DNA of 64,000 bases, taken from contig OX597815.1 of NCBI GenBank assembly GCA_951406725.2, positions 152,582,001 to 152,646,000 on the forward strand, in the 5' to 3' direction. This DNA comes from Octopus vulgaris. Lineage: Eukaryota. The translations under genes and the position numbers were made by a program. The notes below the pieces were generated by a model. The model saw only the letters and a list, made by a program, of their open reading frames with translations, had not been told where the DNA came from and searched no databases. Positions 22,601 to 64,000 of the stretch are shown here, one piece after another. Within the stretch, counting starts at the first letter, position 1. Each line of letters opens with the position of its first letter.

Positions 22601-23243
22601 CTGATATACATTATGAAGGCAGTGAAAATTCATATTAGAGTTGTGTAACACATAATAGAAGAAAGCCCAATAATACATTGTTTCTAATGCAGTTTACTGT
22701 AGTCCTCGTTTTCTACATCAGTGCTATATCCATTTATAATTTATATTGATTGACACAGAGGAAATGAAGTGGAGGGTGAGTTAATATGTTGTTGTTTGTG
22801 TCTGTTTCAGGATGCCTCCGAGCAACACTTATTTGTTTTGTCTCACATTAGCTGTGGAATATCATTAGTCTTACACATTCTTACAGCAATCTTTTATGGT
22901 TGTATCAAGTAAGCATTTCAATTTCCATTTCCTTTTAAAAACTGTTTAAATACTGAGAGACAGCATCCATCACTTTGTCGGGTTCTCACAGGCTGGTAAG
23001 ATCAATGTGGGGTTGATGTCTACAGGAAAAACCATGAATGAACGGACAATTTCGAAATGTCACTCTGATGAGGATTGACTGGACAAAAACGGTAGTGTAG
23101 ATTTTTTGAGTGACTCACAATAAGGATGACATAAAAAAGAGAGAGGTTTAGGGATGAGGGAAATCTATCATGTGTGTTTAGTCTATAGCTTGTTAATTCA
23201 GAAAATTACAGACCAATGAGTAGTGACGGTAATGACTCTGTCT

Positions 23244-29600: not shown

Positions 29601-29792
29601 ATTCAAGGCAGTGGCTGCTCTGTTACACTACTCCCTCATAGCAACTGTCATGTGGATGTGTATCACAGCTTTTCATGGTTATAAAGATAGTGACATGGAA
29701 AGCTACAAAAAATATTTTATGATCGTGAGTTCAATTTTGGCCTGGGGTAGGTATAATTTCTATCTTCAGTTTTCTATTTTCGGGTCACTTTA

Positions 29793-35192: not shown

Positions 35193-38100
35193 TGTATGTA
35201 TGTATGTATGTATGTATGTATGTATGTATGTATGTACGTATGTACGTATGTACGTATGTACGTACGTACGTACGTACGTATGTATGTATTCTGATACAAC
35301 GATTCTGATACTGATGATAAGGAAAATAAGGAAATCATTGTAAAAAAAGGGAGGAGCAATTTTAATGATAGTGTTGATTAGGATAAAGGGTTGATGGGTA
35401 GTGATTATTATGGAAAGATGTTACTGTTATCCTGTTTGTGGCTGGAATTCTCCAGGGAAGGAGTATATTTTAATAATTGTAGACTGAATTTTTTCCCATA
35501 TAAACAAGAGTGGGGCAAGTGTCTCCTCTCTTAAGTTTAAGATGTTAATTGCAGACAGGATGTGCAGTTTTTCTGTTACTACAGATTACACCTTGTACCT
35601 TGTCCATTTTAGACACTTGCTTTGATATTTGATGGTAGGATTATTTATATCATGGCCCTTTAGGTACTAGATATACTTAGATAATGATGTAACATTCCTT
35701 CTACTACCGTTACAGATTGTGTAAAAATGTTGCATGAAACAGGCCTTAAAGGTGTTTTCTGTGAGCCCTCATCATTATCATCATGTGTGTGTGTGTGATC
35801 ATGATCATGATCATGGTTTTACTGGAACTGGTAAACCAGAGAATTGCACCAGGTTCCAGTCTGATATGGCATGGCTTCTATGGCTGGATGCCCTTCGTAA
35901 CACCAACCACTCTGAGAGTGTAATGGGTGTTTTTATGTGCCACCGGCACAGGTGCCAGCTATGTAACACTGGCTTGGCCACAACTATGATTTCACTTGGC
36001 TTGATGAATTTTCTCAAGTACAGCATATCGCCAAAGTGTCATCACTTGTCCTCCATGAGGCCCACCTATATACGATTTTCATAACGCCTTCCTTGTCCTA
36101 GATTTCAGCCTTATCAACGAGATCTAACAAAAGGCACTTATTATCTAGTGGACTCTGTGACCAGTTTCTCTTACTGATACAGTCATGCCTGAACTTATAT
36201 TCTTTTGTGCCAGCTTACTGCATTTACTAGAAAGATGGTTAATACTGTCATTTTTTTCTACAGATTCTGCCTTTGTTCTCTGGCTGAGTTTTAGTAATCT
36301 TTGTATCAAGTTTGTTCAATGCCTTGTTCATCAGCAACTATGATTAGCGATTGAGCTTCTCATTTCAGATTTCCATATTGAGGACCTTTAGTTTCAAGAT
36401 TGACAATGTAATTCCTTTTCTTACCAGCTCATAGTCTAGTTGTTTTGCTTCTGTTTTGGAATTTTCTTGGATGTTTTCTTATCTAGTTTTGTTTTGTATG
36501 ATGTGACATAATGTATTGTTATAGCTCTTTGTTTAAATTTGTGGTAGATCAATAGCAATGTCATACTTTTAAACAGAATGCATTGCAAAACTAGGCAATT
36601 AATATTGGAAGCAATACTCCTTATAGAGAACGATGCAAAACTAAATACACAAATAACTTACACATAAATAATGCTTGACACTGATATACAAATCTGAGAA
36701 TCAAATTTATAGAAGGATATGTTTTCCATGTTGGTGTTCACATTATGGATGGATATGTTCATTTTCACATTCGGGTTCACCATATTAGAAGTATAGCTCT
36801 GTTCCGCATCGAGTCACCATTATAGTTAGATAGTTGTCCATGTCAGTATCACCAGTGAATGGATGGACTGACTTGTGGACGGGTTTTGGTCAGGTGGGTA
36901 GGTGGGCGTATGGATGGATGGATGGATGGATGGAACAGATGGACCGGATGGATGGATGATTGGATGGATGGATGGATGGATGGATGGATGGACTGGATGG
37001 ATGGAAAGATGGATGGATGAGTGAATGGATAGATGGGTGAATGGATAGAAGGATGGATGGGTGAGTGAGGGTTTCAGGGTGAAATGATTGATGGATGTCT
37101 GAGATGACAATGTACAACCAGTAATGAAATGTCTTCTTTCATTTTGGATCAAAATCACTTTCCCATAATGCCTCTTTGATTTATCAGTTTATTCAGTGAA
37201 TATTTGGTAAGTTTCCTTTCTTAATTGATTTTCTATTTCTTTGTAGCTGTTGGTTATCCAAGACATCATTTTACATTACTTTCCTGGCTCCTGTGGTGAT
37301 CATGTGCATCTTACAATTTAACTTCAGTTTTCTTCCAAGTAAAAGAAAAATCAAACAGGAACTGAATAGAACAGATTTCTGTTGCTTCATTTGTTTGTTT
37401 TACCTATTGATCCTGTTCAGATTGTCATGGTTATTTGCATTCTTAGCTTTTGATGAAGTAGTTGAAGTGTTCGACATACTCTTTGGTATATTCAACTTAT
37501 TACAAAGTCTCTTTATCTTCTTATTTTACCATATAAACAACAAACGCATTCAACAGGAAGGGAACAACAACACATGTAAGTGCAATTAAGGACTTTTTTT
37601 TATTCTTACCATCATCAGAATCAACGCCAATAGTGTTATGATGAGGATAGCCACAAACATCGCATCTAGCGACCCAACCACTATTGACACCACCTTAGGA
37701 TAGACATCACCATAAATACCAACTTTACTATGTGTGCATGTGTGTGTGAGCGTGTGCATCTGTGTGTGCATGAATGTGTGCGTGCATGAGAAGTTTAAGT
37801 GATAACGGAAGAATAATGAGGATGCAGGGACTGAAAGTTACAAGAAAATGAGGATAAGAACAATGACGTGAAAGAGAGGTGGAGAATGACATGACCGAAT
37901 GGATGAAGCTAAGATACAATTATTTGTGAGACGGTTAATGATTTACAAATATCTTGAGAATACAATAGTCAAAGACAGTGTTACTTGCTAGAACATCAAT
38001 GTTGGCTTTGGTAAAGTATGAGGCTCAATTACAAAATCTCAACAAAAATTTGAAAATATAACTGTGAAATCATTTGGTCAGTGCTGCTGTGAATGTCCTT

Positions 38101-41100
38101 AGTTGGTAAAACTTTAGATTAATAATGATAGCTTTTTGTGTGAATGTGAATGCTGGTAAATTTTACTATAAACTATAACACTTGAAATTATGATTTTCAG
38201 ACCGACATATGCAGTCTAGAAATGAACATCCAGGTACAACACGTCAAAGAACATCACAGCCACATGGTGAGTATAAAACTGAAGTACCAAATTGATTTCT
38301 ATAAGTTTTCCTTTGAGCACTAGCATTGGTGAGTTTTTCTTGTGTCCCATAAAATTAGACAGTTCTTACTGCTCTTATGTTGTGTTTTTTCCTTTCAAGG
38401 TGACATGTTGAGAAGTGATGACAGAAGAATAATGAGGATGCAGGGAGTGAAAGTTGTGAGAAAATGAGGATAAGAATGGTGATTTGAAAGAGAGGTGGAA
38501 AATGACAAGACTGAGTGACTGTCAGTTGTGAGCCAACAGAGATGATTAACAACTTGGGAGTGTGATAATTAATGTCAAAATACTTATCAGAACATCATTT
38601 TCAGCATTCAAATGTAGGAGATTCAATAACAAATCTCAACTAGAAATGTTTTTAAGTGGTAAAATTTGTTAGAGATGATTTCCTTTGTTTACAAAATTGT
38701 TCTCCAGAATTTCTTCTTGATTTATCATCTCATGGAGATGTCAGATTTTTACAGTAGTCTGATGTTTGATATGAGAACATCTCTCACCAGAGTGTCTTCC
38801 TAGAATGTCTCAGGCTAGAATATGTCTATATATATATCTCCCTGAATGTTCAAAAACACAACTGTTTTCACTAACTGGACGTACAAACAAACATTTCTAG
38901 AAAAGTCAACTTCAATCTCTACAATAGTACCTTTATTTTCTTCTTGACTACCTGAAATATGCAAACATACTTTTTATTGCAATAACAGAAATAAACATGT
39001 GGTTAAGTGTGTATGTAAACAAATACGTAACCCGATTCATGATTGAAAGGAATTTATTTACAGGGTTTGATTTGTTATAGGTAGGAAACTCCTAAGAGTT
39101 GCTAGAAATACAGAGTACATATTAGGAATGAATATGTTTGTGTGTGTGCGTGTTTGATTCGAAACAGTTGTCTATCGGCACTTCGAACATTTCTCTCTGT
39201 CTCTGCGGTCTGCCAAAACCTGCCTCTCCTGTTTCACCGGGTTTTATAATATTTGTGGCAGTTAGAAAGACAGACATGTTGCAGCAGAGTTTGTACCTAA
39301 ATAGGTCAGCGCTTGTCCAGTTGAACTTCGCCTGTCAGAGGGAGATGATCAATCAATTTTTGACAGGACAAAGAAAACCTTTTTACGCGTCTGTTGATCA
39401 TCGTGGTTTGGACGACCGAGAATTCTTGGATTCGGTTTCGAATCTAGGCTTGGAGAAGGAAGTGTTAATTCTTACACTACCCCTCTTCTAGTGAGAAAGC
39501 CACAGAGATCGAGCGATATTGGAAATGTTATTTTTTGTGTGTATGCAGAAAAAATTTGCACATTGTAACAGACAAATGAATATATATATCAAAAACATGG
39601 GATATAAAAATATGAAGCAAAGGTTTACTTTACTGCTGATGTGTGCTATATGGTGGGCAATACATATATGTGCCCAGGCAGAAATATGTTGGCGTGTTGA
39701 AAGAGATGTGCGTCTATTGATTACTCGACCCACTAGAGGTCTAATAGAGGCAAGGCGTCTTTCAGTGGCGTAAAAGAATTGAGTGGTAGCACACATAAGA
39801 ATATGACTGTTGTAAATGTGTGTAAGCATACAGGTAGCAACATATTTTTACAAGAAGGCAAAACATTTTAAAGAGAAAGCAAAACATATGTACATACAAA
39901 AAATGAAAGAAATGTTCATCGAAAAAGTTCGTTTGTGAAATGTTCAGTAAATGTTCATACAGACAGTTTTTCGTTGATGTGGAACAACGTTTTTGTTTTC
40001 TTTTTTTTTTGTATACAAATGTTCTTTGATTTCTTTGGGTTTGTATGTGGGTGATGCAGTTATGTGAGTTATGTGTTGAAGTATGATGGATAGGTTAAGA
40101 GTTTGGAACTTACCCGAAAAACTTACATAAACCTTGCGGGCCATTGAACTGTTCTTCCCGATTTGGTTCGTCGGGGTTGTGCAGAATTTGTGGTGTTTGC
40201 TGGAATTGGTGAGTCCGTTCGAGGAAAGGAGGGAAATGAATGTAAGTCCTCCTCGATGAAGGCTTTTTTCAAACGATCAATCGATACCGTATTTCATTTA
40301 CCTCCAATATCAAGAACAAAGTACTTGGGTTTTCTTTTGATAACCTTGTAGGGCCCGGAATATGGTGGCTGAAGTTGAGATGGTATCCCATCATTCCTCA
40401 CGAAAACATGAGTCCAAGTGTTGATGTCTTTTGGGACATGTGAAACGACGTTCTGTTGTCTGGGGCCTAAAGGTGATAAATGCGACATGGATGTCCGTAA
40501 TCGGTGCACATATTGTGCTGGGTCAGGAAAGTCTTGTGAAGAAACAGGTTTGGTCATCTGCCCAGGTAAGGTGAGTGCTGTGCCATAGACGAGTTCAGCC
40601 AGAGTATATTCAAGTTCCTCCTTAACCGTGGATGGAATACCAAGGAGGATGAGAGGGAGGTGTTCCAGCCAGTGAGAACTGTCTGAAGCTGCTTTTATAG
40701 ATGCCTTGAGTTGGCGGTGAAAACGTTCGACCATGCCATTTGCTGCAGGGTGGTAAGCCGTAGTGCAGGTGTGTTTACACCCGAGGAGACGAGTCAGCTT
40801 GGTGAAGAGGTGGGAATCGAACTGACATCCTCTGTCAGTGGTGATTGTTGCGGGTGTGCCAAAATGCGAAACCCATTGTGATATCAGCGTTTTGATGACC
40901 GTTTCTGCTGATGTATCAGATAAGGGCCAGGCTTCGGGCCATCGTGAAAAACAATCTACGCAGGTGAGCAAATGTGTATAATTCTGCGAAGGTGGCAGAT
41001 GTCCCACGATATCAATGTGAACGTGTTGAAATCATGCATCAGGTTGCGAAACGGAACCGATTGGTGATTTTATGTGCCGGTAGATTTTCGCTTTTTGGCA

Positions 41101-44100
41101 CGCAACACAGCACTTGGTCCATTCTCTGATATCCTTGTTGATACTGGTCCACACAAAACAGGTTGATATCAGCTTTTGAGTGGAGCGAATACCAGGATGT
41201 GACAGAGAATGCAGAGTGGAGAAAACTTCTCGACCTTGTTTCTGTGGTATATAGGGGCGTTGGTGACCAGTGGAGATATCACACCAAATATGGGCCATGG
41301 ATGATGGTAGCGGAACATGCTGAAATTTCATAGATGACGAATTCCGGAGCTTTAGAAGCTCTTCGTCATTCTCCTGATTAGCTGCTATACGTGCCAGATC
41401 AATTGTAGCCGTGGTGTGGATAGCATTGATCTGCGTGCGTGAAAGTGCATCGGCTGCTAAGTTGGTGTGGCATATATCCGTTCGTATACTGCGATATGAA
41501 GTCGAGGTGGCAGATTTCTCTCGGCGAGTGGCGATCTGGCTTGGTGTTAAATGCATATACCAGTGGCTTGTGGTCAGTGTATATGGCAAAATTGGTACCT
41601 TCTAGCATGTGACGGAAATGCTTAATGGCCAGGTAAGCCGCTAATAATTCTCAACTGAATGTACTGTATTTGGTTTCCGCGGGTTTTAACCGCTTAGAAA
41701 AGAAGGACAACGGTTGGCATATACCGTCAACAAGCTGCTGTACTACACCTCCAACTCCGGAATCAGATGCATCAACGAGTAAACACCATGGGGCGTCTGG
41801 TTTTGGATAAACCAACATGGTAGTGTTGGATAACGCTTTTTTCAGGGCACCGAATGAGGCGAGTTGATCTTTGGTCAGTGCAATTTCCGTATTTTTGCAA
41901 GTTCGCTGACGTAGCAAATCCGTGAGCGGTTGCGCTATCTCAGCGAGATGGGGTACGAACCGTCGATAGAAATTCGCTAGACCGAGATATTCCCTTAATT
42001 TGCAGAGCGATGTGGGTGGTGGGAAATCCGCGATGGCCTTGACTTTCTCAGGAAGGGGACGAATTCCATCCTTATCGACGATGTGCCCGAGAAAATGAAG
42101 GGAAGCAACTCCGAACAAACACTTACTGGGGTTGATAACAACACTGTGTTTGCGGAGGCGTTCGAATAGCAGGTGATGGTGTTGGTTATGTTCTTCGCCC
42201 AAGTTACTGACCACGAGTATGTGGCAAACCTCTAGTCACCATGTCGATAAACCTTTGGGATATCTGTGTGGTGTTGTGTAAACTGAAAGGCATACGCTGG
42301 AATTCAAACATTCCGAAGGGTGTAATAACTGCTGTCTTCGAGATGTCCGCAGGTTCCACTGGGATTTGGTAGTATGCTTGCACAAGGTCGATTTTGGAAA
42401 AGATGCAAGCTCCATGCAGCGAGCTTGAAAAATCTTGAAGAAATGGGACCGGGTAGGCATCACTGATAGTACTTTTATTCAGCGATCGATAATCACTGCA
42501 AACCCGCCAATCAGTCGAGGATTTTTTGGGGGACGCAGTGTATCGGCGAGGACCAGTTGCTGCTAGAAGGGCGGATGATTCCGAGGTCGAGCATGTGCTG
42601 GAATTCCCGCTTGACAGCCTTGAGGCGCTCAGGTGGTAGCCTTCTGGGTCTTGCAGCAACAGGTGGACCACTGGTTTTGATGTGGTGGGTAACGTCGTGC
42701 TTGATCGGCTGGTTGTGGAATACTGGTCAAGTGACGTCCGGATATTCCTTCAGGATAGAACTGTGACGAGTCGTTGTTGTGAGCAATATAGTTGGGGTGA
42801 CTGTGGCCATACGAGCGGCTATACCGCACACAGTAAGCTTTGTGGTGCTGTCGATAAGTCGTCTATTTTTGATGTCTAACAGGAGACCGAAATGATGCAG
42901 GAAATCGGCTCCCAAGATAGGGGTTGGCAGTTTAGCGATGACAAATACCCACTGAAAGGTGCAGCGTAGTCCTAAGTTCAGTGTTAGGGACTGTTCACCG
43001 TAGGTTGAGATGGGTGAATGGTTGACTGCCTGAAGACAGACTGGTGTCTCTTTTCTTTCTCCTGAAGTGTTGGAGACAGGGATGATGCTGACTTCCGCGC
43101 TGGTATCAACCAGGAAATGCGTGCCTGTTACTCGATCGCAAACGAAAAATAGGCGACTGTGTGGGTGCGAGCCAGGAACTTCTGTCGCGTTCAATTCCTG
43201 GCTGTGTCATTTCCCGAAATAAATGAGGAAAACGAGCATGGTATCGTGCATTTTTGCGTCTGTGTTCCAAACTTTCGGTGGGACCAACACAAGTCATGTC
43301 AGTTGCGGGTAGCACTGGGTTGGCTTCGGGGCCATCTACCATCTCGGCGCGATCGGCTACTGCTTCGACACTGCATTCCACGCGATAGAGCTTGTATCTG
43401 GTCTATCAGGGCCTGTATCCGTGAAGCCCGCTGAGTGACCAATGCATGCAAGTCAGAAATTTCCGAAACACTGGACGCCAAAAGGAAAGGGTTGGGGGAA
43501 GGAATCGCTGCCTGGAATGACATGTCGACTGAAGATGTGTTTTCCGCTGGGGTTCAGTTCTGGCAGGGCCATTGTGTTCGCCGGAATTCTCAGTTGTTTC
43601 GTTACCGGGTGATGTGCAAGCTGTGATTCTTCGACGCGGTTGATGAAGCTGGTTCAGGGGAAGGCCACAATTCGTTGATGGGGTAACCAAATGTAGAGGT
43701 TAAGTGTGTATGTAAACAAATGCGTAAACCGATTCATGATTGAAAGGAATTTATTTACAGGGTTTGATTTGTTATAGGTACACTCCCTACAAAATGAAGG
43801 AACTCCTACGAGTTGCTAGAAATACAGAGTACATATTAGGAATGAAAATGTTTGTGTGTGTGCGTGTTTGATTCGAAACAGTTGTCTATCGGCACTTCGA
43901 ACATTTCTCTCTGCCTCTGCGGTCTGCCAAAACCTGCCTCTCCTGTTTCACCGGGTTTTATAATATTTGTGGCAGTTAGAAAGACAGACATGTTGCAGCA
44001 GAGTTTGTACCTAAATAGGTCAGCGCTTGTCCAGTTGAACTTCGCCTGTCAGAGGGAGATGATCAATCAATTTTTGACAGGACAAAGAAAACCTTTTTAC

Positions 44101-47100
44101 GCGCCTGTTGATCGTCGTGGTTTGGACGACCGATAATTCTTGGATTCGGTTTCGAATCTAGGCTTGGAGAAGGAAGTGAAAATTCTTACAAACACGTCCA
44201 AGTCAGTTCTTATTCATCCAATGTCCAAGTCAGTTCTTATTCTGAGTTAACATCCACTTTCACTGCTTCAGGTACACACATGTCTCACTTAAATACTCTG
44301 GATTTTCTTTGAGGAGATACCCTTCTTAACACCAACCATTTTATAAAGGATCTTGGGTATGTTTTATTGTAACACAGGCAATAATAAGATTGTCATCATC
44401 ATCACCATTTATCGTCCATTGTCCATGCTGGCATGGGGTGGATAGTGTGACCAGAGCTGACAAGCGGAGGGGCTGTACCAGACTCTAATGTCCACAACTA
44501 GATTGAACGTTGCACTCAAAATTACACTATCTCTTCTCATTCACCAATTGCTTTCATGTGTGCACTGGGGCCATTTTCTCATAGTGCTAGCACTGGTCAG
44601 GTTGTCTAGCATCTCATAATATTATACAATTCTCATTGCACTTTCATGTGTTTTTACAATCATGAAGACATTTTGAGAAAGTGAGATGTTTAAGTGATAA
44701 AGGAAGAATTCTGAGGATGCAGGTACTGGAAGTTACAAGAAAATGAGGATAGCAAGAATGACTTGAAAGAGAGGTGGAGAATGACATGACCGAATGGATG
44801 AAGCTAAGATACAATTATTTGTGAGATGGTTAATGATTCACTAACATCTTGAGAATCCAATTATCAAAGACAGTGTTACTTGCTAGAACATCAATGCTGG
44901 CTTTGGTAAAGTATGAGGCTCAATCACAAAATCTCGACAAGACTTAGAATATCTACCTGTGAAATCATTTGGTCAGTGAATGTTTGTAAAGGGTAAAAGT
45001 TTAGATTAATAATTATAGCTTTTTGTATGAATGTGAATGTTGGTAAATTATACTATAATTTATAACACTTAAAATTATGTATTTAAGGCTTACAAAGGCA
45101 GGTTACAAATGAAGAGCCAGCATGTGAGATTGAAACTGAAGTACCAAATAGATTTCTATAAGTTTTCCCTTGAGCACTAGCATTGGTCAGTTTCTCTTGT
45201 GTCCCATAAAATTAGACTATTCTTACTGCTCTTATGATGTGTTTTTTCATTCAAGGTGACAAGTTGAGAAGTGATGACAGAGAAAGAATGAGGATGCAGG
45301 GAGTGAAAGTTGTGAGAAAATGATGATAAGAATGGTGATTTGAAAGAGAGGTGAAGAATGACAAGACTGAGTGACTGTCAGTTGTGAGCCAACAGAGATG
45401 ATTTATGATGTATTAACATCTTGGCAGTGTGATAATTAGAGTCAAAAGTACTTATAAGAACATCATTTTCAGCATTCTAATGTAGGAGATTCAATAACAA
45501 ATCTCAACTGGAAATGTTTTTAAGTGGTAAAAATTGTTAAAGATAATTTCCTTTGTTTACAAAATCATTGTCCAGAATTTCTTCTTGATTTATCATCTTA
45601 TGAAGATGTCAGATTTTTTACAGTAGTCTGATGTGTGATATGAGATATCATCTCTCACAGGAGTTTCTTCCCAGAATGTCTCAGGCTTACAAGGGCATTA
45701 TAGTATTATAATATGTATTATAGTCTATATATATATCTCACTGAATGATCAAAAACAAATGTTTTTTATTGCAAAAACACAACTGTTTTCACTAACTGGA
45801 CATACAAATAAACATCTCTATAAAAGTTAGCTTCAATCTCCACAATTTTACCTTTATTTTCTTCTTGACTACCCGAAATATGCAAACATACTTTTTATTG
45901 GAATACCAGAAATAAACACATGGAGAAAAAGAAGGAAATAAAAATAGATGATACTAATAATAGATTCTCTATCATCGAACACAACTCTATTCACAAATAC
46001 AGATCAAAGTCGGCCCTTCGTTGATTTTTTTCTCAAAGTCATGGTCACAGTTTGCATGTTCCAACAACAATATAGTAGACATTTGAAATCTTTTTGACCG
46101 ATCAGACTCCATCATACTTAAAAAAAAAGTAGTAGTTGCGTATCTTTTCCTTTTGAACGGCACTTTGTAATTAAAAAGTTTTAAACTTTGTATACTGGTA
46201 GAATGTGTTTGTAAAACATCTTTTCTCTTGGCTTTATTGAGAAAATTGTATAGGTTGTAAGATATTTTGTCTTTAATTTCAAGCATTTTGGCAATTTTAA
46301 CTAATCGCTGAGGCCCATTTAGGTAAATAACATTCTGTGCATAATGAATATGTCCCTTCTATAAGAAACAGATTGCATATATTTAGATTTGTGAAGAAAA
46401 CAAGATACCCTTCCCCAAACCCTAACCCTAACCCTAACTAACCCTAACTCTAATCCTAAATCTAAAATAGACTGAAATGCAATAGATCGATACTAGGTCC
46501 ATAATTATGGGTGACATTTTCATTTGAGATCGCTAGAAAAAAATCCCATTTACCATAGCGGTGTCGTATGAAATTGTCACCGATAATTATAATCCTAGTA
46601 TTGATCTATTGCATTTCAATCTATTTAGGGTTAGTCAGGGTTAGGGTTAGGGGTGGGGGAAGGGTATCTTATTTTCTTCACAAATGTAAATAAATCCAAT
46701 CTGTTTCGTAAAGGAGGGACATATTTATTATGTACAGAATGTTATTTACCTAAATGGACGTCAGCCATTGGTTAAAATTGCCAAAATGCTCGAAATTAAA
46801 GACAAAATATCTTACAACATATAGAATTTTCTCAATAAAGCCAAGAGAAGAATGAAGTTTTACAAACACATTCTACCAGTATACGAAGTTTAAAACATTT
46901 GAGTTACCTAGATATTATGTCACAAAGTGCCGTTCAAAAGGAAAAGATCCGTAGTTGCTGCTACAACTACTACCACTGCTACTATCAGAAATAACTACTA
47001 CTACTACTGCTACAATTAGAAACATAAGTTGACAGTGACATTGAGATGTTTTTCCCTGTGTCTGAATCATACCGGTGACACCAATGAAAAATCCCTTCCT

Positions 47101-50100
47101 TCTTTTCTTTTGTCGGGAGAAAAGAGAATTTACAGTAAAAACAAACCTTCAGCTCTCCCTCCAGCATAAAAATTACTTTAACAAAATATTTTAATAGGGC
47201 AAAACGTGCGAAAAATTTAAATTAAATTAATGAAAGACAAATACATGAGCCTTCTCGCACATAAACACATTTATTCACATATATACAAACACATAAGCAG
47301 ACGCAAATATTGAAGTACTAAATAGTACAACAAATAATATTTAACCATGTGGAGCATTTTACATGCATATCAATATTCTAAAGTTGGACCTACTATTCCT
47401 TATCCTAAAGCTACTAACAGATAAAGAAGAAAAGTTCCTGACTCATTTCACCGTCTACTTTCAATCTTTGATTGTGACTCTGCTCAACCCAAACTTTCTC
47501 AGATTTTGCCTGCTGTTATCTACACCTACAAAGATTGCAGCTGTTTTTATTCCTGCTTTTAACTATCAGAATTATCCTAGAACCCCTGGCAGCTATAGAA
47601 GATTGTTTTTGTCAACCATCTATCATGTCGTCCGAGCCTGGCTCAGCTACCTACAAATCGAAACTGAGATCTGCGAAAAGGGCTCGATCTGCTGATCCTA
47701 TTTTGGAAAATTTAGTTAATAAGGTGAACAGTGATATCAAGCTTTCACATGAAGACCCTGAAATCAAGATTTCTCATCAAGAAGATGGTCTTACTAACAA
47801 ATATCTCAATGAGCAGTTGCTGTTGCTTAAACAAGAGGTCGAACACCTTAAGTCTGTTGTTGCTGAATTACAGAATAAAAAAAACTGAATCCCATTCAAA
47901 GTCTCCTATTGATGAAGAGCCACTCTTGATTTCTTCCCTAAAGACTTCCAAACTGAAGAGATCAAAATCGAAGCGGTCAAAGAAGGCAAAAGTTCTGGCA
48001 GTCGTTTCCACTCATGATCCTATCTGTGCAGATTCTTCCTCATCTGCCTTTTTGGTCCCGGAGGTTCCCCAACCTGAATTGAGGAGCGTACACTCAAACC
48101 CACCTGAAGTCCATTGTTCTCCCCAAAAGAAGAAATGTAGTCAAAACTCCGGTGGGGCAGATTTAGATGCGAAACCTGCTCAAGATCAAATCTGTTTGGA
48201 TTCTCCCTCGTTTGTCCTTCTCATCAATGCCATTGCTCAAACAATTCTGCATGATCTTGATGTGAGTTCATCTGGGGAGTGGTGCTCCTCCAAAACAAAA
48301 AGAGGCAGTGCAGTTCCAAACCAGGCGGTAAAGTTATGACCACTAAACCCATTCCTTCGACCCCAAAGGCCTACATAAGTGTGATGGCTACGAAACTGCC
48401 CTTTCTGATTTATCAGATGAAGAATCGAATGCCGTAGTTCACAGTAGAGAACAGAACGACCATTTTGCCCACTCAAGATCAGCAATCATTTATGGTAAAG
48501 CTGAATCCACCAGTGATACAAGCATAAACCGCCTAAAAGATGACATAAATTTTGTTTCCGTTTTAGTTGGAGAATTGCACTTTGTCAACGAAAATGTCAT
48601 TATCCATAAGGTCGCTCGGCTAGGAAGATTCCAAGTGAACTCAACCTCAGACACAAGACCACGCCCAATAAGAGTAATCTTTTCTTCCGATCAGGAGGCT
48701 TCAACCTTTCTGAACAGAGTTCAGAAGCATGCCCGGGAGGATTCTATATGGGTTTTCGCAAGGAATACTCACTTTGAAGTGTGTACAGGGGCCATTTTCA
48801 CTTATAGTGCTAGCACTGGTCAGGTTGTCTTGCATCTCATATTATACAATTCTCATTGTTCTCTGATGTGTTTTTACAATCATGAAGACATGTTGAAAAG
48901 TGAGATGTTTAAGTGATAAGGGAAGAATAATGTGGATGCAGGTACTGAAAGTTACAAGAAAATGAGGATAAGAACAATGACATTAAAGAGAGGTGGAGAA
49001 TGACATGACCAAACGGATGAAGCTAAGATACAATTATTTGTGAGATGGTTAATGATTCACTAACATCTTGAGAATCCAATAATCAAAGACAGTGTTACTT
49101 AATGGAACATCAATGCTGGCTTTGGTAAAGTATGAGGCTCAATCACAAAATCTCAACAAGCGTTAGAAAGTCTACCTGTGAAATCATTTGTTCAGTGTTG
49201 TTGTGAATATTTGTAAAAGGTAAAAGTTTTGATTAATAATTAAAGGTTTTTGTGTGAATGTGAATGTTGGTAAATTTTACTATAAATTATAACACTTGAA
49301 ATTATGAATTTCAGACATTAATCTGCAGAATACACTTGCACAGCCACATGGTGAGTATAAAACTGAAGTATCAAATTGATTTCTATAAGTTTTCGCCTGA
49401 GGACTGGCATTGGTCAGTTTCTCTTGTGTCCCATAAAATTAGACACTTCTTACTGCTCTAAATGTGTTCTTTCATTCAAGGTGACAAGTTGAGAAGTGAT
49501 GACAGAGAAAGAATGAGGATGCAGGGAGTGAAAGTTGTGAGATAATGAGGATAAGAATGGTGATTTGAAAGAGAGGAGGAGAATGACAAAACTGAGTGAC
49601 TGTCAGTTGTGAGCCAACAGAGATGATTATTGATGTATTAACATCTAGGGAAACTGATAATTAAAGTCAAAAGTACTTATAAGAACATCATTTTCAGCTT
49701 TCTAATGTAGGAAATTCAATAACAAATCTCAACTGAAAATGTTTCAGTTGTTGACGATAATTGTTAAAGATAATTTCCTTTGTTTACAAAATCGTTCTCC
49801 AGAAGTCCTTCTTGATTCAACATCTTATGAAGTTGTCAGATTTGTACAGTAGTCTGATGTTTGATATGAGATATCCTCTCTTGCAGGAGTATCTTCCCAA
49901 AATGTCTCAGGCTAGAATATGTATTATAATCTATATATATATATATATATATATATATGAGTATATATATATATATATATATATTTGTAACTTAGATTGC
50001 ATGTATCTGTGCGTGTAAATGTGTGTCTGTCTGTATGTGTGCTTCACTAAAACTCAAGAACTAACCAACTGATTTCATTCAAATTTCACACCTGCCTTAG

Positions 50101-53100
50101 TTATGGTCCATGTTGTCATGGGCCAAACAAAGTTTCAACGTCTTGCGTAATGTGATCCTGGAGCAATCTCTTATCTCTTACGCTATTTCGGTATTACTTG
50201 TCAGAAGGGAAACAATAAAATCTCTATTGTAATGTGAACTAATACATTCACTGTGATATATTTATGTATGTATCTGTAAGTATATATATGCATGTATATG
50301 TATGTTTACATATACATGCACACATATCAGATCAGATTGGAGCCTGGTGCAGCCTTCTGGCTTGCTAGACCTCAGCATGGAAAGCAGATATTAAAATACG
50401 ATGATGATAATGATGATGATCATGATCATGGAGCTTCTACTTTATAGATCTGTGCTGAGACAATCATATTCACTGTAATGAAAGCCACATATTTTTTAGT
50501 CAGATTATATACAATTTATATAGATATCTAGTATTGCAATGTCAGACAGTGTTTTTTGTATTGCATATACAACCTGTTAACATGATAATGAATCAGATAT
50601 TATTCATTAATTGATTTACATTTGTATGTCTGAAATTTAACCTTATTTTGTCATAGCATCATCTTGTATCCTCACCAAACAGATTTAAACTTTATTACCA
50701 TCTGTGTAAATAATTCAACTGTTTTTCTTGGGCATGCAACCACTCCACTACAAAATGGTATTATTGACTTCTGTAGTCCAATAAGGTCCAGATGTTATTG
50801 TGTCCTAAAACAAAATGTGAAACATATCTGTATATTTATGGTACTATTTTGGTATATTTTATAAAGCATTATTGTGACATTTTGTAATTAGTTGGTCTTA
50901 ATTCACATCAATGACAAATGTAGTACAACAGTGGTAATGTGAAAGGGATTACATATTCCTTGTGATGTTGTCCTTATATTAGCTATAACATCACATACAG
51001 TTTCTGTCAGTCACACCCTGCTACACAGGTGTAAGTTCCAAGTCCTCAAGTTAGATACAGGCTGCTTGATGCAAAATAATAAATGATAGTGTCTTTACCA
51101 TTCACCATCAGCTTCCATGCTCCCATCAATTAGATGGGTCATCAATGTCCCAGTCAGTTCTTATTCTGACTTAACATCCACTTTCACTGCTTGAGGTACA
51201 CACGCGTCTCACTTAAATACTCTGGATTTTTTTTGAGGAGATACCCTTCTTAACACCAACCATTTTATAAAGGATCTTGGGTATGTTTTATTGTAACACA
51301 GGCAATAATAAGACTGTCATCATCATCACCATTTATCGTCCATTGTCCATGCTGGCATGGGGTGGACAGTGTGACCAGAGCTGACAAGCGGAGGGGCTGT
51401 ACCAGACTCTAATGTCCACAACTAGATTGAACATTGCACTCAAAATTACGCTGTCTCCTCTCATTCATCAATCACTTTCATGTGTGTACTGGGGCCATTT
51501 TCTCATAGTGCTAGCACTGGTCAGTTTGTCTAGCATCTCATAATATTATACAATTCTCATTGCACTTTCATGTGTTTTTACAATCATGAAGACATTTTGA
51601 GAAAGTGAGATGTTTAAGTGATAAAGGAAGAATTCTGAGGATGCAGGTACTGAAAGTTACAAGAAAATGAGGATAGCAAGAATGACTTGAAAGAGAGGTG
51701 GAGAATGACATGACCGAATGGATGAAGCTAAGATACAATTATTTGTGAGATGGTTAATGATTCACTAACATCTTGAGAATCCAATTATCAAAGACAGTGT
51801 TACATGCTAGAACATCAATGTTGGCTTTGGTAATCACAAAATCTCAACAAGACTTAGAATGTCTACCTGTGAAATCATTTGGTCAGTGAATGTTTGTAAA
51901 AGGTAAAAGTTTAGATTAATAATTATAGCTTTTTGTATGAATGTGAATGTTGGTAAATTATACTATAATTTATAACACTTGAAATTATGTATTTCAGGCT
52001 TACAAAGGCAGGATACATATGAAGAGCCAATAAGTGAGTATAAAACTGAAGTACCAAATTGATTTCTATAAGTTTTCCCTTGAGCACTAGCATTGGTCAG
52101 TTTCTCTTGTGTCCCATAAAATTAGACTATTCTTACTGCTCTTATGATGTGTTTTTTCATTCTAGGTGACAAGTTGAGAAGTGATGACAGAGAAAGAATG
52201 AGGATGCAGGGAATGCAAGTTGTGAGAAAATGATAAGAATGGTGATTTGAAAGAAAGGTGGAGAATGACAAGACTGAGTGACAATCAGCTGTGAGCCAAC
52301 AGAGATGATTTATGACGTATTAACATCTTGGGAGTGTGATAATTAAAGTCAAAAGTACTTATAAGAACATCATTTTCAGCATTCTAATGTAGGAAATTCA
52401 ATAACAAATCTCAACTGGAAATTTTTTTAAGTGTAAAAATTGTTAAAGATAATTTCCTTTGTTTAATAAATCATTGTCCAGAATTTCTTCTTGATTTATC
52501 ATCTTATGGAGATGTCAGATTTTTACAGTAGTCTGATGTGTGATATGAGATATCATCTCTCACAGAAGTTTCTTCCCAGAATGTCTCAGGCTTACAAGGG
52601 CATTATAGTATTATAATATGTATTATAGTCTATATATATATATCTCACTGAATGTTCAAAAACAAATGTTTTTTATTGCAAAAACACAACTGTTTTCACT
52701 AACTGGACATACAAATAAACATCTCTATAAAAGTTAGCTTCAATCTCCACAATTTTACCTTTATTTTCTTCTTGACTACCCGAAATATGCAAACATACTT
52801 TTTATTGGAATACCAGAAATAAACACACGGAGAAAAAGAAGGAAATAAAAATAGATGATACTAATAATAGATTCTCTATCATCGAACACAACTCTATTCA
52901 CAAATACAGATCAAAGTCGGCCCTTCGTTGATTTTTTTCTCAAAGTCATGGTCACTGTTTGCATGTTCCAACAACAATATAGTAGACATTTGAACTCTTT
53001 TTGACCGATCAGACTCCATCATACTTTAAAAAAAAAAGTAGTAGTTGCGTATCTTTTCCTTTTGAACGGCACTTTGTAATTAAAAAGTTTTAAACTTTGT

Positions 53101-56100
53101 ATACTGGTAGAATGTGTTTGTAAAACATCTTTTTCTCTTGGCTTTATTGAGAAAATTGTATAGGTTGTAAGATATTTTGTCTTTAATTTCAAGCATTTTG
53201 GCAATTTTAACTAATCGCTGAGGCCCATTTAGGTAAATAACATTTTGTGCATAATGAATATGTCCCTCCTATAAGAAACAGATTGCTTATATTTACATTT
53301 GTGAAGAAAACAAGATACACTTCCCCAACCCCTATCCCTAACACTAACTAACTCTAACTCTAATCCTAAATCTAAATTAGACTGAAATGCAATAGATCGA
53401 TACTAGGTCCATAATTATGGGTGACATTTTCATTTGACACCGCTAGAAAAAAATCCCATTTTCCATAGCGGTGTCATATGAAATTGTCACCCATAATTAT
53501 AACCCTAGTATTGATCTATTGCATTTCAATCTATTTAGGGTTAGAGTTAGGGTTGGTCAGGGTTAGGGTTATGGGTGGGGGAAGGGTATCTTATTTTCTT
53601 CACAAATGTAAATAAATCCAATCTGTTTCTTAAAGGAGGGACATATTCATTATGTACAGAATGTTATTTACCTAAATGGACGTCAGCCATTGGTTAAAGT
53701 TGCCAAAATGCTCGAAATTAAAGACGAAATATCTTACAACATATAGAATTTTCTCAATAAAAACAAGAGAAAAATGATGTTTTACAAACACATTCTACCA
53801 GTATACGAAGTTTAAAACTTTTTAGTTACCTAGATATTATGTCACAAAGTGCCGTTCAAAAGGAAGAGATCCGTAGTAGCTGCTACAACTACTACCACTG
53901 CTACTGTCAGGAATAACTACTACTACTACTGCTACAATTAGAAACATAAGTTGACAGTGACATCGAGATGTTTTTCCCTGTGTCTCAATCATAACGGTGA
54001 CACCAATGAAAAATCCCTTCTTTTTTTCTTTTTTTATGGGAGAAAAGAGAATTTACAGTAAAAACAAACCTTCAGCTCTCCCTCCAGCGTAAAAATTACT
54101 TTAACAAAATATTTTAATAGGGAAAAACGTGCGAAAAAAATTAAATTAAATTAACGAAAGACAAATACATGAGCCTTCTCGCACATAAACACATTTATTC
54201 ACATATATACAAACACATAAGCAGACGCAAATATTGAAGTAATAAATAGTAAAACAAATAATATTTAACCACATGGAGCATTTTACATGCATATCAATAT
54301 TCTAAAGTTGGACCTACTATTCCTTATCCTAAAGCTACTAACAGATAAAGAAGAAAAGTTCCTGACTCATTTCACCGTCTACTTTCAATCTTTGACTGTG
54401 ATTCTGCTCAACCCAAACTTTCTCAGATTTTGCCTGCTGTTATCTACACCTACAAAGATTGCAGCTGTTTTTGTTCCTGCTTTTAACTATCAGAATTATC
54501 CTAGAACCCCTGGCAGCTATAGAAGATTGTTTTTGTCAAACATCTATCATGTCGTCCGAGCCTGGCTTAGCTACCTACAAATCGAAACTGAGATCTGCGA
54601 AAAGGGCTCGATCTGCTGATCCTATTTTGGAAAATTTAGTTAAAAATGTGATCAGTGATATCAAGCTTTCACATGAAGACCCTGAAATCAAGATTTCTTT
54701 TCAAGAAGATGGTCTTACTAACAAATATCTCAACGAGCAGTTGCTGTTGCTTAAACAAGAGGTCGAACACCTTAAGGCTTTTGTTGCTGAATTACAGAAT
54801 AAACAAGCTGAATCCCATTCAAAGTCTCCTATTGATGAAGAGCCACTCTTGATTTCTTCCCTAAAGACTTCCAAACTGAAGAGATCAAAATCGAAGCGGT
54901 CAAAGAAGGCAAAAGTTCTGGCAGTCGTTTCCACTCATGATCCTATCTGTGCAGATTCTTCCTCATCTGCCTTTTTGGTCCCAGAGGTTCCCCAACCTGA
55001 ATTGAGGAGCGTACACTCAAACCCACCTGAAGACCATTGTTCTCCCCAAAAGAAGAAATGTAGTCAAAACTCCGGTGGGGCAGATTTAGATGCGAAACCT
55101 GCTCAAGATCAAATCTGTTTGGATTCTCCCTCGTTTGTCCTTCTCATCAATGCCATTGCTCAACCAATTCTGCATGATCTTGATGTGAGTTCATCTGGGG
55201 AGTGGTGCTCCTCCAAAACAAAAAGAGGCAGTGCAGTTCCAAACCAGGCGGTAAAGTTATGACCACTAAACACATTCTGTTCGACTCCAATGGCCCACAT
55301 AAGTGTGATGGCTATGAAACAGCCCTTTCTGATTTATCAGATGAAGAATCGAATGCCGTAGTTCACAGTAGAGAACAGAACGACCATTTTGCCCACTCAA
55401 GATCAGCAATCATTTATGGTAAAGCTGAATCCACCAGTGATACAAGCATAAACCGCCTAAAAGATGACATAAATTTTGTTTCCGTTTTAGTTGGAGAATT
55501 GCACTTTGTCAACGAAAATGTCATTATCCATAAGGTCGCTCGGCTAGGAAGATTCCAAGTGAACTCAACCTCAGACACAAGACCACGCCCAATAAGAGTA
55601 ATCTTTTCTTCCGATCAGGAGGCTTCAACCTTTCTGAACAGAGTTCAGAAGCATTCCTGGGAGGACCTATATATGGGTTTTCGCAAGAAATACTCACTTT
55701 GAAGTGTGTACTTAGATTGCATGTATCTGTGCGTGTAAATGTGTGTCTGTCTGTATGTGTGCATCACTAAAACTCAAGAACTAACCAACTGATTTCATTC
55801 AAATTTCACACCTGCCTTAGTTATGGTCCATGTGGTGTCATGGGCCAAACAAAGTTTCAACGTCTTGCGTAATGTGATCCTGGAGCAATCTCTTATCTCT
55901 TACGCTATTTCGGTATTACTTGTCAGAAGGGAAACAATAAAATCTCTATTGTAATGTGAACTAATACATTCACTGTGATATATTTATGTATGTATCTGTA
56001 AGTATATATATGCATGTATATGTATGTTTACATATACATGCACACATATCAGATCAGATTGGAGCCTGGTGCAGCCTTCTGGCTTGCTAGACCTCAGCAT

Positions 56101-59100
56101 GGAAAGCAGATATTAAAATACGATGATGATAATGATGATGATCATGATCATGGAGCTTCTACTTTATAGATCTGTGCTGAGACAATCATATTCACTGTAA
56201 TGAAAGCCACATATTTTTTAGTCAGATTATATACAATTTATATAGATATCTAGTATTGCAATGTCAGACAGTGTTTTTTGTATTGCATATACAACCTGTT
56301 AACATGATAATGAATCAGATATTATTCATTAATTGATTTACATTTGTATGTCTGAAATTTAACCTTATTTTGTCATAGCATCATCTTGTATCCTCACCAA
56401 ACAGATTTAAACTTTATTACCATCTGTGTAAATAATTCAACTGTTTTTCTTGGGCATGCAACCACTCCACTACAAAATGGTATTATTGACTTCTGTAGTC
56501 CAATAAGGTCCAGATGTTATTGTGTCCTAAAACAAAATGTGAAACATATCTGTATATTTATGGTACTATTTTGGTATATTTTATAAAGCATTATTGTGAC
56601 ATTTTGTAATTAGTTGGTCTTAATTCACATCAATGACAAATGTAGTACAACAGTGGTAATGTGAAAGGGATTACATATTCCTTGTGATGTCTGCGAAAAG
56701 GGCTCGATCTGCTGATCCTATTTTGGAAAGTTCAGTTAAAAAGGTGATCAGTGATATCAAGCTTTCACATGAAGACCCTGAAATCAAGATTTCTAATCAA
56801 GAAGATGGTCTTACTAACAAATATCTCAACGAGCAGTTGCTGTTGCTTAAACAAGAGGTCGAACACCTTAAGTCTGTTGTTGCTGAATTACAGAATAAAC
56901 AAACTGAATCCCATTCAAAGTCTCCTATTGATGCAGAGCCACCCTTGATTTCTTCCCTAAAGGCTTCCAAACTGAAGAGATCAAAATCGAAGCAGTCAAA
57001 GAAGGCAATAGAACTGGCAGTTGTTTCCACTCATGATCCTATCTGTGCAGATTCTTCCTCATCTGCCTTTTTGGTCCCGGAGGTTCCCCAACCTGAATTG
57101 AGGAGCGTACACTCAAACCCACCTGAAGTCCATTGTTCTCCCCAAAAGAAGAAACGTAGTCAAAACTCCGGTGGGGCAGATTTAGCTGCGAAACCTGCTC
57201 AAGATCAGATCTGTTTGGATTCTCCCTCATTTGTCCTTCTCATCAATGTCATTGCTCAACCAATTCTGCATGATCTTGATGTGAGTTCATCTGGGGAGTG
57301 GTGCTCCTCCAAAACAAAGAAGGGGCAGTGCAGTTCCAAACCAGGTGGTAAAGTTATGACCACTAAACCCATTTCGATCATCCCCAATGGACTACATAAG
57401 TGTGATGGCAACGAAACCGCCCTTTCTGATTTATCAGATGAAGAATCGAATGCCGTAGTTCACAGTAGAGAACAGAACGACCATTTTGCCCACTCAAGAT
57501 CAGCAATCATTTATGGTAAAGCTGAATCGACCGGTGATACAAGCATAAACCGCCTAAAAGATGACATAAATTTTGTTTCCGTTTTAGTTGGAGAATTGCA
57601 CTTTGTCAACGAAAATGTCATTATCCATAAGGTCGCTCGGCTAGGAAGATTCCAAGTGAACTCAACCTCAGACACTAGACCATGCCCAATAAGAGTAATC
57701 TTTTCTTCAGATCAGGAGGCTTCAACCTTTCTGAACAGAGTTCAGAAGCATGCCCGGGAGGATTCTATATGGGTTTTCGCAAGGAATACTCACTTTGAAG
57801 TGTGTACTGGGGCCATTTTCTCATGGTGCTAGCACTGGTCAGGTTGTCTTGCATCTCATATTATACAATTGTCATTGTTCTCTGATGTGTTTTTACAATC
57901 ATGAAGACATGTTGAGAAAGTGATAAGTTTAAGTGATAACAGAAGAATAATGTAGATGCAGGTACTGAAAGTTACAAGTAAATGAGAATAAGAACAATGG
58001 CATTAAAGAGAGGTGGAGAATGACATGACCAAACGGATGAAGCTAAGATACAATTATTTGTGAGATGGTTAATGATTCACTAACATCTTGAGAATCCAAT
58101 AATCAAAGACAGTGTTACTTAATGGAACATCAATGCTGGCTTTGGTAAAGTATGAGGCTCAATCACAAAATCTCAACAAGCGTTAGAAAGTCTACCTGTG
58201 AAATCATTTGGTCAGTGTTGCTGTGAATGTTCGTAAAAGGTAAAAGTTTTGATTAATAATTAAAGGTTTTTGTGTGAATGTGAATGTTGGTAAATTTTAC
58301 TATAAATTATAACACTTGAAATTATGAATTTCAGACATTAATCTGCAGAATACACTTGCACAGCCACATGGTGAGTATAAAACTGAAGTACCAAATTGAT
58401 TTCTATAAGTTTTCGCCTGAGGACTAGCATTGGTCAGTTTCTCTTGTGTCCCATAAAATTATACTGTTCTTACTGCTCTTAATGTGTTCTTTCATTCAAA
58501 GTGACATGTTGAGAAGTGATGACAGAGAAAGAATGAGGATGCAGGGAGTGAAAGTTGTGAGAAAATGAGGATAAGAATGGTGATTTGAAAGAGATGTGGA
58601 GAATGACAAAACTGAGTGACTGTCAGTTGTGAGCCAACAGAGATGATTATTGATGTATTAACATCTAGGGAAACTGATAATTAACCCTTTAGTGTTCACA
58701 TTATTCTGCCAAAATTAATGCTTTTTCATCCTCTTTGTTTTGAACTAATCATGCATTATCTTGTAGTTATGAGATTTTGATGAGGTAGCTGTTAATTTTT
58801 AAAATGATATTGTAGGGTTGGTGTGAGAGACCAGATCTGGCCAGTTTGAACATAAAACAGGCAGAATACTTTTGGCTGGATATGGCCGGTTTAAATGCTA
58901 AAGGGTTAAAGTAAAAAGTAGTAGTTGCGTATCTTTTCCTTTTGAACGGCACTTTGTAATTAAAAAGTTTTAAACTTTGTATACTGGTAGAATGTGTTTG
59001 TAAAACATCTTTTTCTCTTGGCTTTATTGAGAAAATTGTATAGGTTGTAAGATATTTTGTCTTTAATTTCAAGCATTTTGGCAATTTTAACTAATCGCTG

Positions 59101-61976: not shown

Positions 61977-62980
61977 GTGAGTATAAAACTGAAGTACCAA
62001 ATTGATTTCTATAAGTTTTCACTTGAGCACTAGCATTGGTCAGTTTTTCTTGTGTCCCATAAAATTAGACTATTCTTACTGCTCTTATGATGTGTTTTTT
62101 CATTCTAGGTGACAAGTTGAGAAGTGATGACAGAGAAAGAATGAGGATGCAGGGAGTGAAAGTTGTGAGAAAATGATGATAAGAATGGTGATTTGAAAGA
62201 AAGGTGGAGAATGACAAGACTGACTGACAGTTGTGAGCCAACAGAGATGATTAATGATGTTATTAACATCTTGGGAGTGTGATAATTAAAGTCAAAAGTA
62301 CTTATAAGAACATCATTCTCAGCTTTCTAATGTAGGAAATTCAATAACAAATCTCAACTAGAAATGTTTATAAGTGGTAAAAATTGTTAAAGATAATTTC
62401 CTTTGTTTACAAAATCGTTCTCCAGAATTTCTTCTTGATTTATCATCTTATGGAGATGTCAGATTTTTACAGTAGTCTGATGTGTGGAGTTTCTTCCCAG
62501 AATGTCTCAGGTTTACAAGGGCATTATAGTATTATAATATGTATTATAGTCTATATATATATCTCACTGAATGTTCAAAAACAAATGTTTTTTATTGCAA
62601 AAACACAACTGTTTTCACTAACTAGACATACAAATAAACATCTCTATAAAAGTTAGCTTCAATCTCCACAATTTTACCTTTATTTTCTTCTTGACTACCC
62701 GAAATATGCAAACATACTTTTTATTGGAATACCAGAAACATACTTTTTATTGGAATACACGGAGAAAAAGAAGGAAATAAAAATAGATGATACTAATAAT
62801 AGATTCTCTATCATCGAACACAACTCTATTCACAAACACAGATCAAAGTCGGCCCTTCGTTGATTTTTTTCTCAAAGTCATGGTCACTATTTGCATGTTC
62901 CAACAACAATATAGTAGACATTTGAACTCTTTTTGACCGATCAGACTCCATCATACTTTTAAAAAAAAAGTAGTAGTTGC

Positions 62981-63799
62981 GTATCTTTTCCTTTTGAACG
63001 GCACTTTGTAATTAAAAAGTTTTAAACTTTGTATACTGGTAGAATGTGTTTGTAAAACATCTTTTTCTCTTGGCTTTATTGAGAAAATTGTATAGGTTGT
63101 AAGATATTTTGTCTTTAATTTCAAGCATTTTGGCAATTTTAACCAATCGCTGAGGCCCATTTAGGTAAGTAACATTCTGTGCATAATGAATATGTCCCTC
63201 CTATGAGAAACAGATTGCATATATTTACATTTGTGAAGAAAACAAGATACCCTTCCCCAACCCCTAACCCTAACTAACCCTAACTCTAATCCTAAATCTA
63301 AAATAGACTGAAATGCAATAGATTGATACTAGGTCCATAATTATGGATGACATTTTCATTTGACACTGCTAGAAAAAAAATCCCATTTTCCATAGCGGTG
63401 TCGTATGAAATTGTCACCCATAATTATAACCCTAGTATTGATCTATTGCATTTCAATCTATTTAGGGTTAGAGTTAGGGTTGGTCAGGTTTAGGGTTATG
63501 GGTGGGGGAAGGGTATCTTATTTTCTTCACAAATGTAAATAAATCCAATCTGTTTCTTAAAGGGGGGACATATTCATTATGTACAGAATGTTATTTACCT
63601 AAATGGACGTCAGCCATTGGTTAAAGTTGCCAAAATGCTCGAAATTAAAGACGAAATATCTTACAACATATAGAATTTTCTCAATAAAAACAAGAGAAAA
63701 ATGATGTTTTACAAACACATTCTACCAGTATACGAAGTTGATAACTTTTTAGTTACCTAGATATTATGTCACAAAGTGCCGTTCAAAAGGAAGAGATCC
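62981..63799. mobile_element. Foldback MITE copy 4
   Basis: Same arms and same flanks. Confidence 0.85.
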
Positions 63800-64000
63800 G
63801 TAGTAGCTGCTACAACTACTACCACTGCTACTATCAGAAATAACTACTACTACTACTGCTACAATTAGAAACATAAGTTGACAGTGACATCGAGATGTTT
63901 TTCCCTGTGTCTGAATCATACTGGTGACACCAATGAAAAATCCCTTTCTTTTTTTCTTTTGTTGGGAGAAAAGAGAATTTACAGTAACAACAAACCTTCA

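Follow-up and report, generated by a model that had tools for sequence, protein, structure and literature searches.

A receptor gene with a tail of microexon cassettes

The stretch analysed here (the window) comprises 64,000 nucleotides (nt) of the 2.8-Gb Octopus vulgaris genome, positions 152582001-152646000 of contig OX597815.1, abbreviated C2 below. Its plus strand carries most of an adhesion G-protein-coupled receptor (GPCR) gene, in which 12 exons share one open frame leading from a pre-GAIN region through GAIN and GPS to seven transmembrane (TM) segments. They are followed by tandem cassettes, each made of one small exon (a microexon) and ~1.2 kb of conserved intron, which build the linker between the last TM segment (TM7) and a Death domain. 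Microexons of this gene and its close paralogs diverge about 2-4 times faster than the introns that flank them; a preliminary description of this DNA had claimed faster divergence from a few of the copies. The features of the gene, in window positions unless C2 is given, are as follows.

2790-2904, 5853-6022, 9605-9836, 10167-10338, 15280-15423, 18319-18447 and 20228-20365, plus strand: seven extracellular exons (pre-GAIN, GAIN, and GPS with an HL/T site), from tblastn with the O. bimaculoides relative and the open frame
22811-22908, 27263-27386, 29608-29746, 32784-32847 and 37247-37575, plus strand: five exons of the 7TM region, from the open frame; intracellular loops (ICL) 1, 2 and 3 and helix 8 hypervariable
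38201-38266, plus strand: first tail microexon, 66 nt, symmetric phase 1, spliced directly after TM7 in contigs
44551-45736, plus strand: example of a ~1.2-kb conserved intron cassette around a microexon, from self-BLAST and genome search
45088-45123, plus strand: microexon A, 36 nt, perhaps weak or skipped, its splice acceptor (AAG) and donor (GTGAGA) being decayed; splicing not observed
49315-49350, plus strand: microexon B, 36 nt, predicted to be spliced
51998-52033, plus strand: microexon A', 36 nt, predicted to be spliced
58335-58370, plus strand: second copy of microexon B, identical to that at 49315
61941-61976, plus strand: second copy of microexon A, identical to that at 45088, with intact splice sites and a B-like upstream flank (recombinant)
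C2:152648126-152666140: three further linker exons and two Death-domain exons of the same gene, past the window end

The translation contains the sequence CSCNHLTSF at the GAIN/GPS cleavage site, and the seven TM segments are 80% identical to those of the best relative, O. bimaculoides XP_014788728.1, which matches PF01825 above the cut-off and PF00002 at 1e-23. The last TM exon alone scored under the cut-off for a PF00002-type domain, and a homologue search with it against longer proteins gave no match; a later HMMER search found the relative at 68% identity. XP_014788728.1 consists of LRR, GPS, 7tm_2, a Ser/Thr/Gln linker and a Death domain, and by clustering (not by a tree) it groups with A0A0L8FLR8 (Ocbimv22014869, LOC106882527), so that the closest relative of the window gene is a listed member of the octopus-specific group 3. 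In the data published for that group A0A0L8FLR8 is the sole member with a Death domain, 5 of 22 members have an LRR ectodomain, and the supplement gives expression of A0A0L8FLR8 as 71% in skin and 17% in sucker (Ritschard et al. 2019, PMC6408891). Coupling of the window receptor to G proteins may be atypical, because its post-GPS stalk is shorter than that of other octopus members (P0009) and its ICL2 is charged.

Four close paralogs, G1 to G4, lie within 0.65 Mb on C2, and G4 is the window gene. G1 has an array of LRR exons; none was found in G4 between its first exon and the LRR C-cap exon, and at C2:152535214-152549814 the signal-peptide/LRR N-cap exon of G4 seems to be joined to the LRR C-cap exon without the 72-nt LRR exon array of G1. 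G2 and G3 (C2:152290000-152490000) form a head-to-head inverted duplication with missing 5' exons and frameshifts, which could reflect either decay or assembly error.

The four paralogs contain 46 microexons (18, 7, 12 and 9). One type of acceptor is common to 39 of them, namely 22 of 36 nt, five of 57 nt, nine of 66 nt and three out-of-frame exons (58, 65 and 65 nt), and 36 of these 39 have a length that is a multiple of three and contain no stop; the remaining seven use an upstream acceptor and are in their majority acidic and tyrosine-rich. All in-frame microexons are symmetric phase 1, the same phase as the TM7 donor and the terminal exon, so that any number and order of microexons keeps the frame. 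The first Death-domain exon has the same donor and downstream intron as the cassettes, to which it is therefore probably related. The upstream and downstream introns of a cassette have in common a segment of ~350 nt with about 69% identity (44587-44938 against 45177-45508), which an earlier tandem duplication has left behind. About 130 nt past every microexon donor, a short phase-1 frame closes with a stop codon (e.g. 52165-52233); the public O. vulgaris model P0224 takes this frame as its last exon, and it could be an alternative terminal exon which truncates the tail.

Splicing was followed in assembled contigs from sequencing runs whose RNA type was guessed, none being on record as RNA. Contigs of all four runs, from four studies, leave the genome exactly at 37575 and resume in the 66-nt exon at 38201, and the joins on both sides of the TM exon at 37247-37575 are present in all four as well. 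The contigs match this TM exon at 328 of 329 positions, and there are two non-synonymous differences from the genome in 30 nt of the 66-nt exon against one in the 329-nt TM exon. A-to-I editing as their source was ruled out by the types of change (G>A, T>C, T>A). Position 37436 is A in all four runs and in the three other paralogs and T in the genome (Phe/Leu, TM6), a rare allele or an assembly error. No intron cover past the TM7 donor was seen in the four runs, which contigs cannot establish as absence; loose ends of the contigs are 90, 90, 84 and 70 nt long, all above 66, and the next exon and intron cannot be told apart by length. Word shares of 0.32-0.45 in six runs exceed the ~0.24 explicable by the TM exon, and those runs may therefore contain cassette intron sequence. 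In the RefSeq model XP_029651540.2 of O. sinensis, the G1 orthologue, the first exon is joined with eleven units of 36 nt and two of 57 nt, and their phase agrees with that derived for the octopus cassettes of the window. Intact splice sites, open frame, lack of stops and homology to this annotated class suggest that A, A' and B are exons too.

Divergence of the microexons and of their introns

Between microexons A (45088-45123) and A' (51998-52033), five of the 36 nt are different (exon positions 16, 21, 33, 34 and 36), compared with two of the 87 nt upstream. The changes, V>D, N>Y, A>I through two substitutions, and one in the base of the split codon, are all non-synonymous; joined to a B exon, the split codon reads TAC (Tyr) in one and AAC (Asn) in the other. 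The excess in the exon has a Fisher p of 0.022 against the 87 nt upstream and of 0.003 against the 4.55-kb duplicated block (130/4551). The two A copies (45088 and 61941) are identical, as are the two B copies (49315 and 58335). A and B had been described as barely alignable; in fact they are colinear without gaps and identical at 19 of 36 positions, and their flanks differ at 39 of 550. Fixed differences between A-type and B-type cassettes amount to 11 of 36 in the exon and 17 of 1013 in the flanks. By itself, the A/A' pair is suggestive to a modest degree, because five other, intronic, regions of the duplicated block also reach at least five differences per 36 nt, the copies are recombinant mosaics and the splice sites of copy 45088 are decayed. 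The variable patch of this pair also continues into the intron (positions +6, +7 and +9, and -3 of the acceptor). None of these four differences is shared with any copy other than 45088, and among the 39 copies neither an AAG acceptor nor a GTGAGA donor occurs elsewhere. It is thus the family that decides, and across the family diversity changes in steps at the exon borders: it rises from 0.065 to 0.37 across the acceptor and falls back from 0.33 to 0.069 across the donor.

Rates were tested on 36 of the 46 exons, the three out-of-frame and seven other-acceptor exons being excluded. One cassette has a non-homologous upstream flank, which inflated flank values in the flank-tree rates and in the synonymous count, a conservative effect, and which was removed or masked in the pair and diversity tests and in the omega estimates. 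Relative to the flank, codon positions 1 and 2 evolve 3.3, 3.2 and 3.9 times as fast in the 36-, 57- and 66-nt classes, and position 3 evolves 1.2, 0.9 and 2.3 times as fast; twice the log-likelihood difference (2dlnL) is 33.8, 21.3 and 45.9 on 2 degrees of freedom. Seventeen disjoint nearest pairs differ at 68 of 774 exon and 244 of 7912 flank positions (p=1e-12). Under neutral simulation at the flank rate, means of 23, 17 and 20 changes are expected in the three classes and 41, 36 and 46 are observed (P 0.0025, 0/400 and 0/400). That every change alters an amino acid, as the preliminary description had it, holds for A/A' and not for the family, where 15 to 19 of 114 changes are synonymous; even the upper count lies below the 26% expected (p=0.011). 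Omega is estimated at 2.6, 6.0 and 1.8 in the three classes. It differs from 1 in a pooled test (p=0.028), and each class by itself rejects a value of 0.3 (2dlnL 15-19). Purifying selection is therefore rejected between exon types and is compatible with the data within types only. CpG hypermutation was considered as a cause of the exon divergence and rejected; CpG is at 0.039 per nt in exons and 0.004 in flanks, and transitions make up a like share of changes in both (26/65 and 128/295).

The cassettes are tandem exon-plus-intron units which recombine. All four A-type copies are mosaics, the one at 61941 having a B-like upstream flank, and identical exons were found inside flanks that differ at 23 of 466 positions.

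Several repeated elements are also found among the cassettes. An insertion of ~1.2 kb (47600-48770, 54517-55712, 56660-57829 and 60380-61561) has frames of up to 394 amino acids and was amplified together with them; these frames have no Pfam match above the cut-off, and their coiled coil and RPRPIRVIF motif are reminiscent of a LINE ORF1. A palindromic element with arms of ~240 nt and runs of CCCTAA (46139-46951, 53048-53873, 58928-59752 and 62980-63800) was duplicated along with the A-type cassettes. A Gypsy-type long-terminal-repeat retroelement (39001-44190) lies in the intron that follows the first microexon; its terminal repeats of ~490 nt are 94% identical, and its protease, reverse transcriptase and integrase frames are broken.

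The intracellular face of the receptor

The acceleration of the microexon peptides is one part of an acceleration of the whole intracellular face of the receptor. The extracellular exons are nearly identical across paralogs: between G4 and G1, 26 of 403 extracellular residues differ (proportion of non-synonymous differences, pN, 0.031), against 23 of 164 in the TM segments and 31 of 50 inside the cell (pN 0.435), the latter distributed over ICL1 (6/12), ICL2 (7/10), ICL3 (9/15) and the helix 8 region (9/13). Neighbouring introns of the two genes differ by 5.2%. The 12 codons of ICL1 carry nine non-synonymous changes and not one synonymous change. The O. bimaculoides relative is 46% identical in the intracellular and 82% identical in the extracellular parts. 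A similar ectodomain with a divergent cytoplasmic part, as in G4 and G1, is a feature of paired receptors.

Only the Death domain of G3 can be aligned from end to end; in the other three paralogs it is broken or truncated. That of G4 is incomplete, since its second exon ends after 38 amino acids compared with 67 in G3, and its two Death exons are separated by a microexon. G2 has a stop in the first Death exon; in G1 the first is frameshifted and the second truncated. In G3 the first Death exon is tandemly repeated and the linker exons are acidic and tyrosine-rich. Pfam scans gave no match for single Death exons and no Death match in P0156.

Split codons make tyrosines at microexon junctions (Y-RHM, Y-INL, Y-MNL), and three exon types contain Y-E-E/Q-P. 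L, I, V, M or P stands at +3 in 13 of 20 distinct tyrosine contexts compared with a background of 26%, with a residue set chosen post hoc and contexts that are not independent; such hydrophobic or proline +3 contexts may be ligands of SH2 domains. The motifs found are single YxxL/I/V/M/P, from a search not aimed at immunoreceptor tyrosine-based activation or inhibition motifs (ITAM or ITIM). The terminal IYLDI was dropped as an ITIM-like candidate, as it aligns to IFLGI of the Death domain. Six of nine 66-nt exons resemble the O. bimaculoides linker with a shuffle p<0.05, so that homology to it is only suggestive.

Selection, mechanism and competing explanations

From these results we consider it probable, though well short of certain, that the divergence of these tandem frame-preserving exons of the cytoplasmic linker reflects bursts of positive selection on the whole intracellular face, by which signalling of the paralogs would have been rewired. 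Diversifying selection on functional tail exons, as originally proposed, finds support when all copies are compared, in the excess at positions 1 and 2, in omega above 1 and in the splicing and annotation data; it has to be narrowed in that selection appears episodic and acts between exon types only, with recombination shuffling exons among flanks. Its episodic nature follows from the 13-copy array of G1, where 1 of 36 exon sites is variable against 27 of 475 in the flanks.

That lack of acceleration among recent copies is one of several points that weigh against this reading. Recombination inflates tree-based rates, and a minimum-spanning count, which is conservative to recombination, puts the excess at only 1.8-2.3 times the flank, beyond nearly all neutral simulations. 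Tests for omega>1 in single classes are modest (p=0.08, 0.045 and 0.17), and the 2.3-fold rate of position 3 in the 66-nt class, like the proportion of synonymous differences (pS) of 0.22 in the intracellular segments of G4 and G1, is raised. The choice of residues and the shared contexts weaken the tyrosine test. The public model P0224 matches the receptor exons and has none of the microexons, and A, A' and B were not seen spliced in the RNA-type contigs, of which 30 letters per loose end were visible. With two paralogs 5'-truncated and frameshifted and G4 lacking the LRR array, part of the receptor family may be decaying.

A relaxed or decaying tail combined with a local mutation hotspot or assembly noise would explain why two paralogs and 3 of the 39 exons are frameshifted, why the splice sites at 45088 have decayed and why exons are richer in CpG. 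Relaxation, however, cannot drive evolution beyond the rate of introns, exons and flanks have equal transition shares, and the excess tracks codon position and ends at exon borders. The chance of having no stop at the matched rate is 0.04-0.10 per class, the TM exon is borne out by contigs, and the O. sinensis model reproduces the exon types of G1 with open frames, which together make decay or noise most improbable. Another explanation places old conserved exons among homogenised introns, as in the SmPoMuc genes with their identical architecture (PMC2576457). Mosaic flanks, identical exons in differing flanks and stasis within types speak for it. It predicts raised synonymous divergence and omega below 1, but the rate of position 3 is close to that of the introns in two of the three classes, an omega of 0.3 is rejected, and single-copy loops in ordinary TM exons, such as ICL1, show the same kind of excess. 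As sole cause intron homogenisation is thus largely refuted and very unlikely; it stays as the mechanism by which copies spread and were shuffled.

The main rival is an arms-race surface. On this view the loops and linker are the target of a hypothetical pathogen effector or protease, and the fast-changing microexon peptides, lying between membrane anchor and Death domain, would serve as escape variants, decoys or baits. Protease tripwires are a familiar concept of host defence. Selection in every intracellular segment with the ectodomain spared fits this topology as well as it fits signalling change, and the skin-enriched relative, its LRR and Death-domain architecture and the non-synonymous differences of the RNA-type contigs all speak for it; repeated LQ/MQ and D-G dipeptides may resemble protease sites. 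The fit is poorer elsewhere: in the three paralogs with broken Death domains an output released on cleavage is missing, and G1 has a 36-nt unit that hardly varies among its 13 copies and is unchanged in O. sinensis, unlike a continuously escaping bait. We therefore regard an arms race as unlikely, and its fuller version, a barrier-tissue GPCR family with a modular, splice-tunable linker that would serve, inside the cell, as the bait or tripwire on which pathogen effectors or proteases act, and with Death-less paralogs as decoys, as quite unlikely.

If selection for rewired signalling is the correct explanation, the process would have started with duplication of a skin LRR-GPCR-Death receptor, after which the sensor was kept and the cytoplasmic output rewired. 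New exon types would have arisen under positive selection, after which unequal crossing-over or conversion, acting through the conserved introns, would have multiplied and reordered them. Through the split codon, a neighbouring exon could create or remove a tyrosine. The linker may be disordered and offer tyrosine and Ser/Thr phospho-motifs as docking sites, and in this way replace or tune G-protein and Death-domain output, possibly in the manner of paired immune receptors and in a barrier tissue.

Exons of snake-venom phospholipase A2 genes are accelerated in the same way. In conotoxin genes the coding exons likewise diverge more than the introns, and in-frame indels and sites under positive selection are found there (PMC3862624). 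Both encode secreted effectors with one mature-peptide exon, whereas the octopus peptide is cytoplasmic and repeated inside one gene. The pattern of toxin and immune genes invoked for these exons thus holds for exon over intron divergence and for non-synonymous over synonymous change, and not for the selected peptide, which is neither secreted nor ligand-binding. In schistosome micro-exon genes (MEGs) the small exons are of symmetric phase. These exons also evolve at an accelerated rate (PMC4350168). MEGs consist mostly of micro-exons and are secreted, while in the octopus gene only the tail is so built, from duplication of whole cassettes. The SmPoMuc mucins of Schistosoma and spider flagelliform silk have a tiny exon with flanking introns in ~1-kb tandem units, introns more alike than exons, and types mixed by recombination (PMC2576457). 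SmPoMuc is explained there by intron homogenisation and purifying selection on secreted proteins, in contrast to omega above 1 in an intracellular receptor linker. Paired immune receptors (KIR, SIRP, PILR, Siglecs) are tandem paralogs with near-identical ectodomains and differing cytoplasmic parts with tyrosine motifs. They are single-pass and usually under selection in the ligand-binding domain, unlike the octopus 7TM receptor, where selection appears to act inside.

The octopus group 3 of LRR adhesion GPCRs is the same expansion, and positive selection was reported for it at the level of the branch; no selected sites were found, and the word 'intracellular' is absent from the main text (PMC6408891). 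Compared with the O. bimaculoides group 3 member, the O. vulgaris gene has four copies, a linker built of microexons and mostly broken Death domains. We found no description of a microexon tail or of selection on the intracellular face in this receptor family in listings from the open-access literature, subscription papers and bioRxiv supplements being outside the search. The public O. vulgaris gene model misses the tail. Secreted toxins and parasite surface proteins are known cases of accelerated exons between conserved introns, and here the pattern is inside-out: the ectodomain of a GPCR is kept and its cytoplasmic loops, tail and Death domain are diversified. This gives a place in the protein to the positive selection that was reported for the octopus expansion without any site, and the four paralogs, which combine almost one and the same sensor with differing intracellular parts, form a natural series in which signalling output or pathogen interference could be tested.

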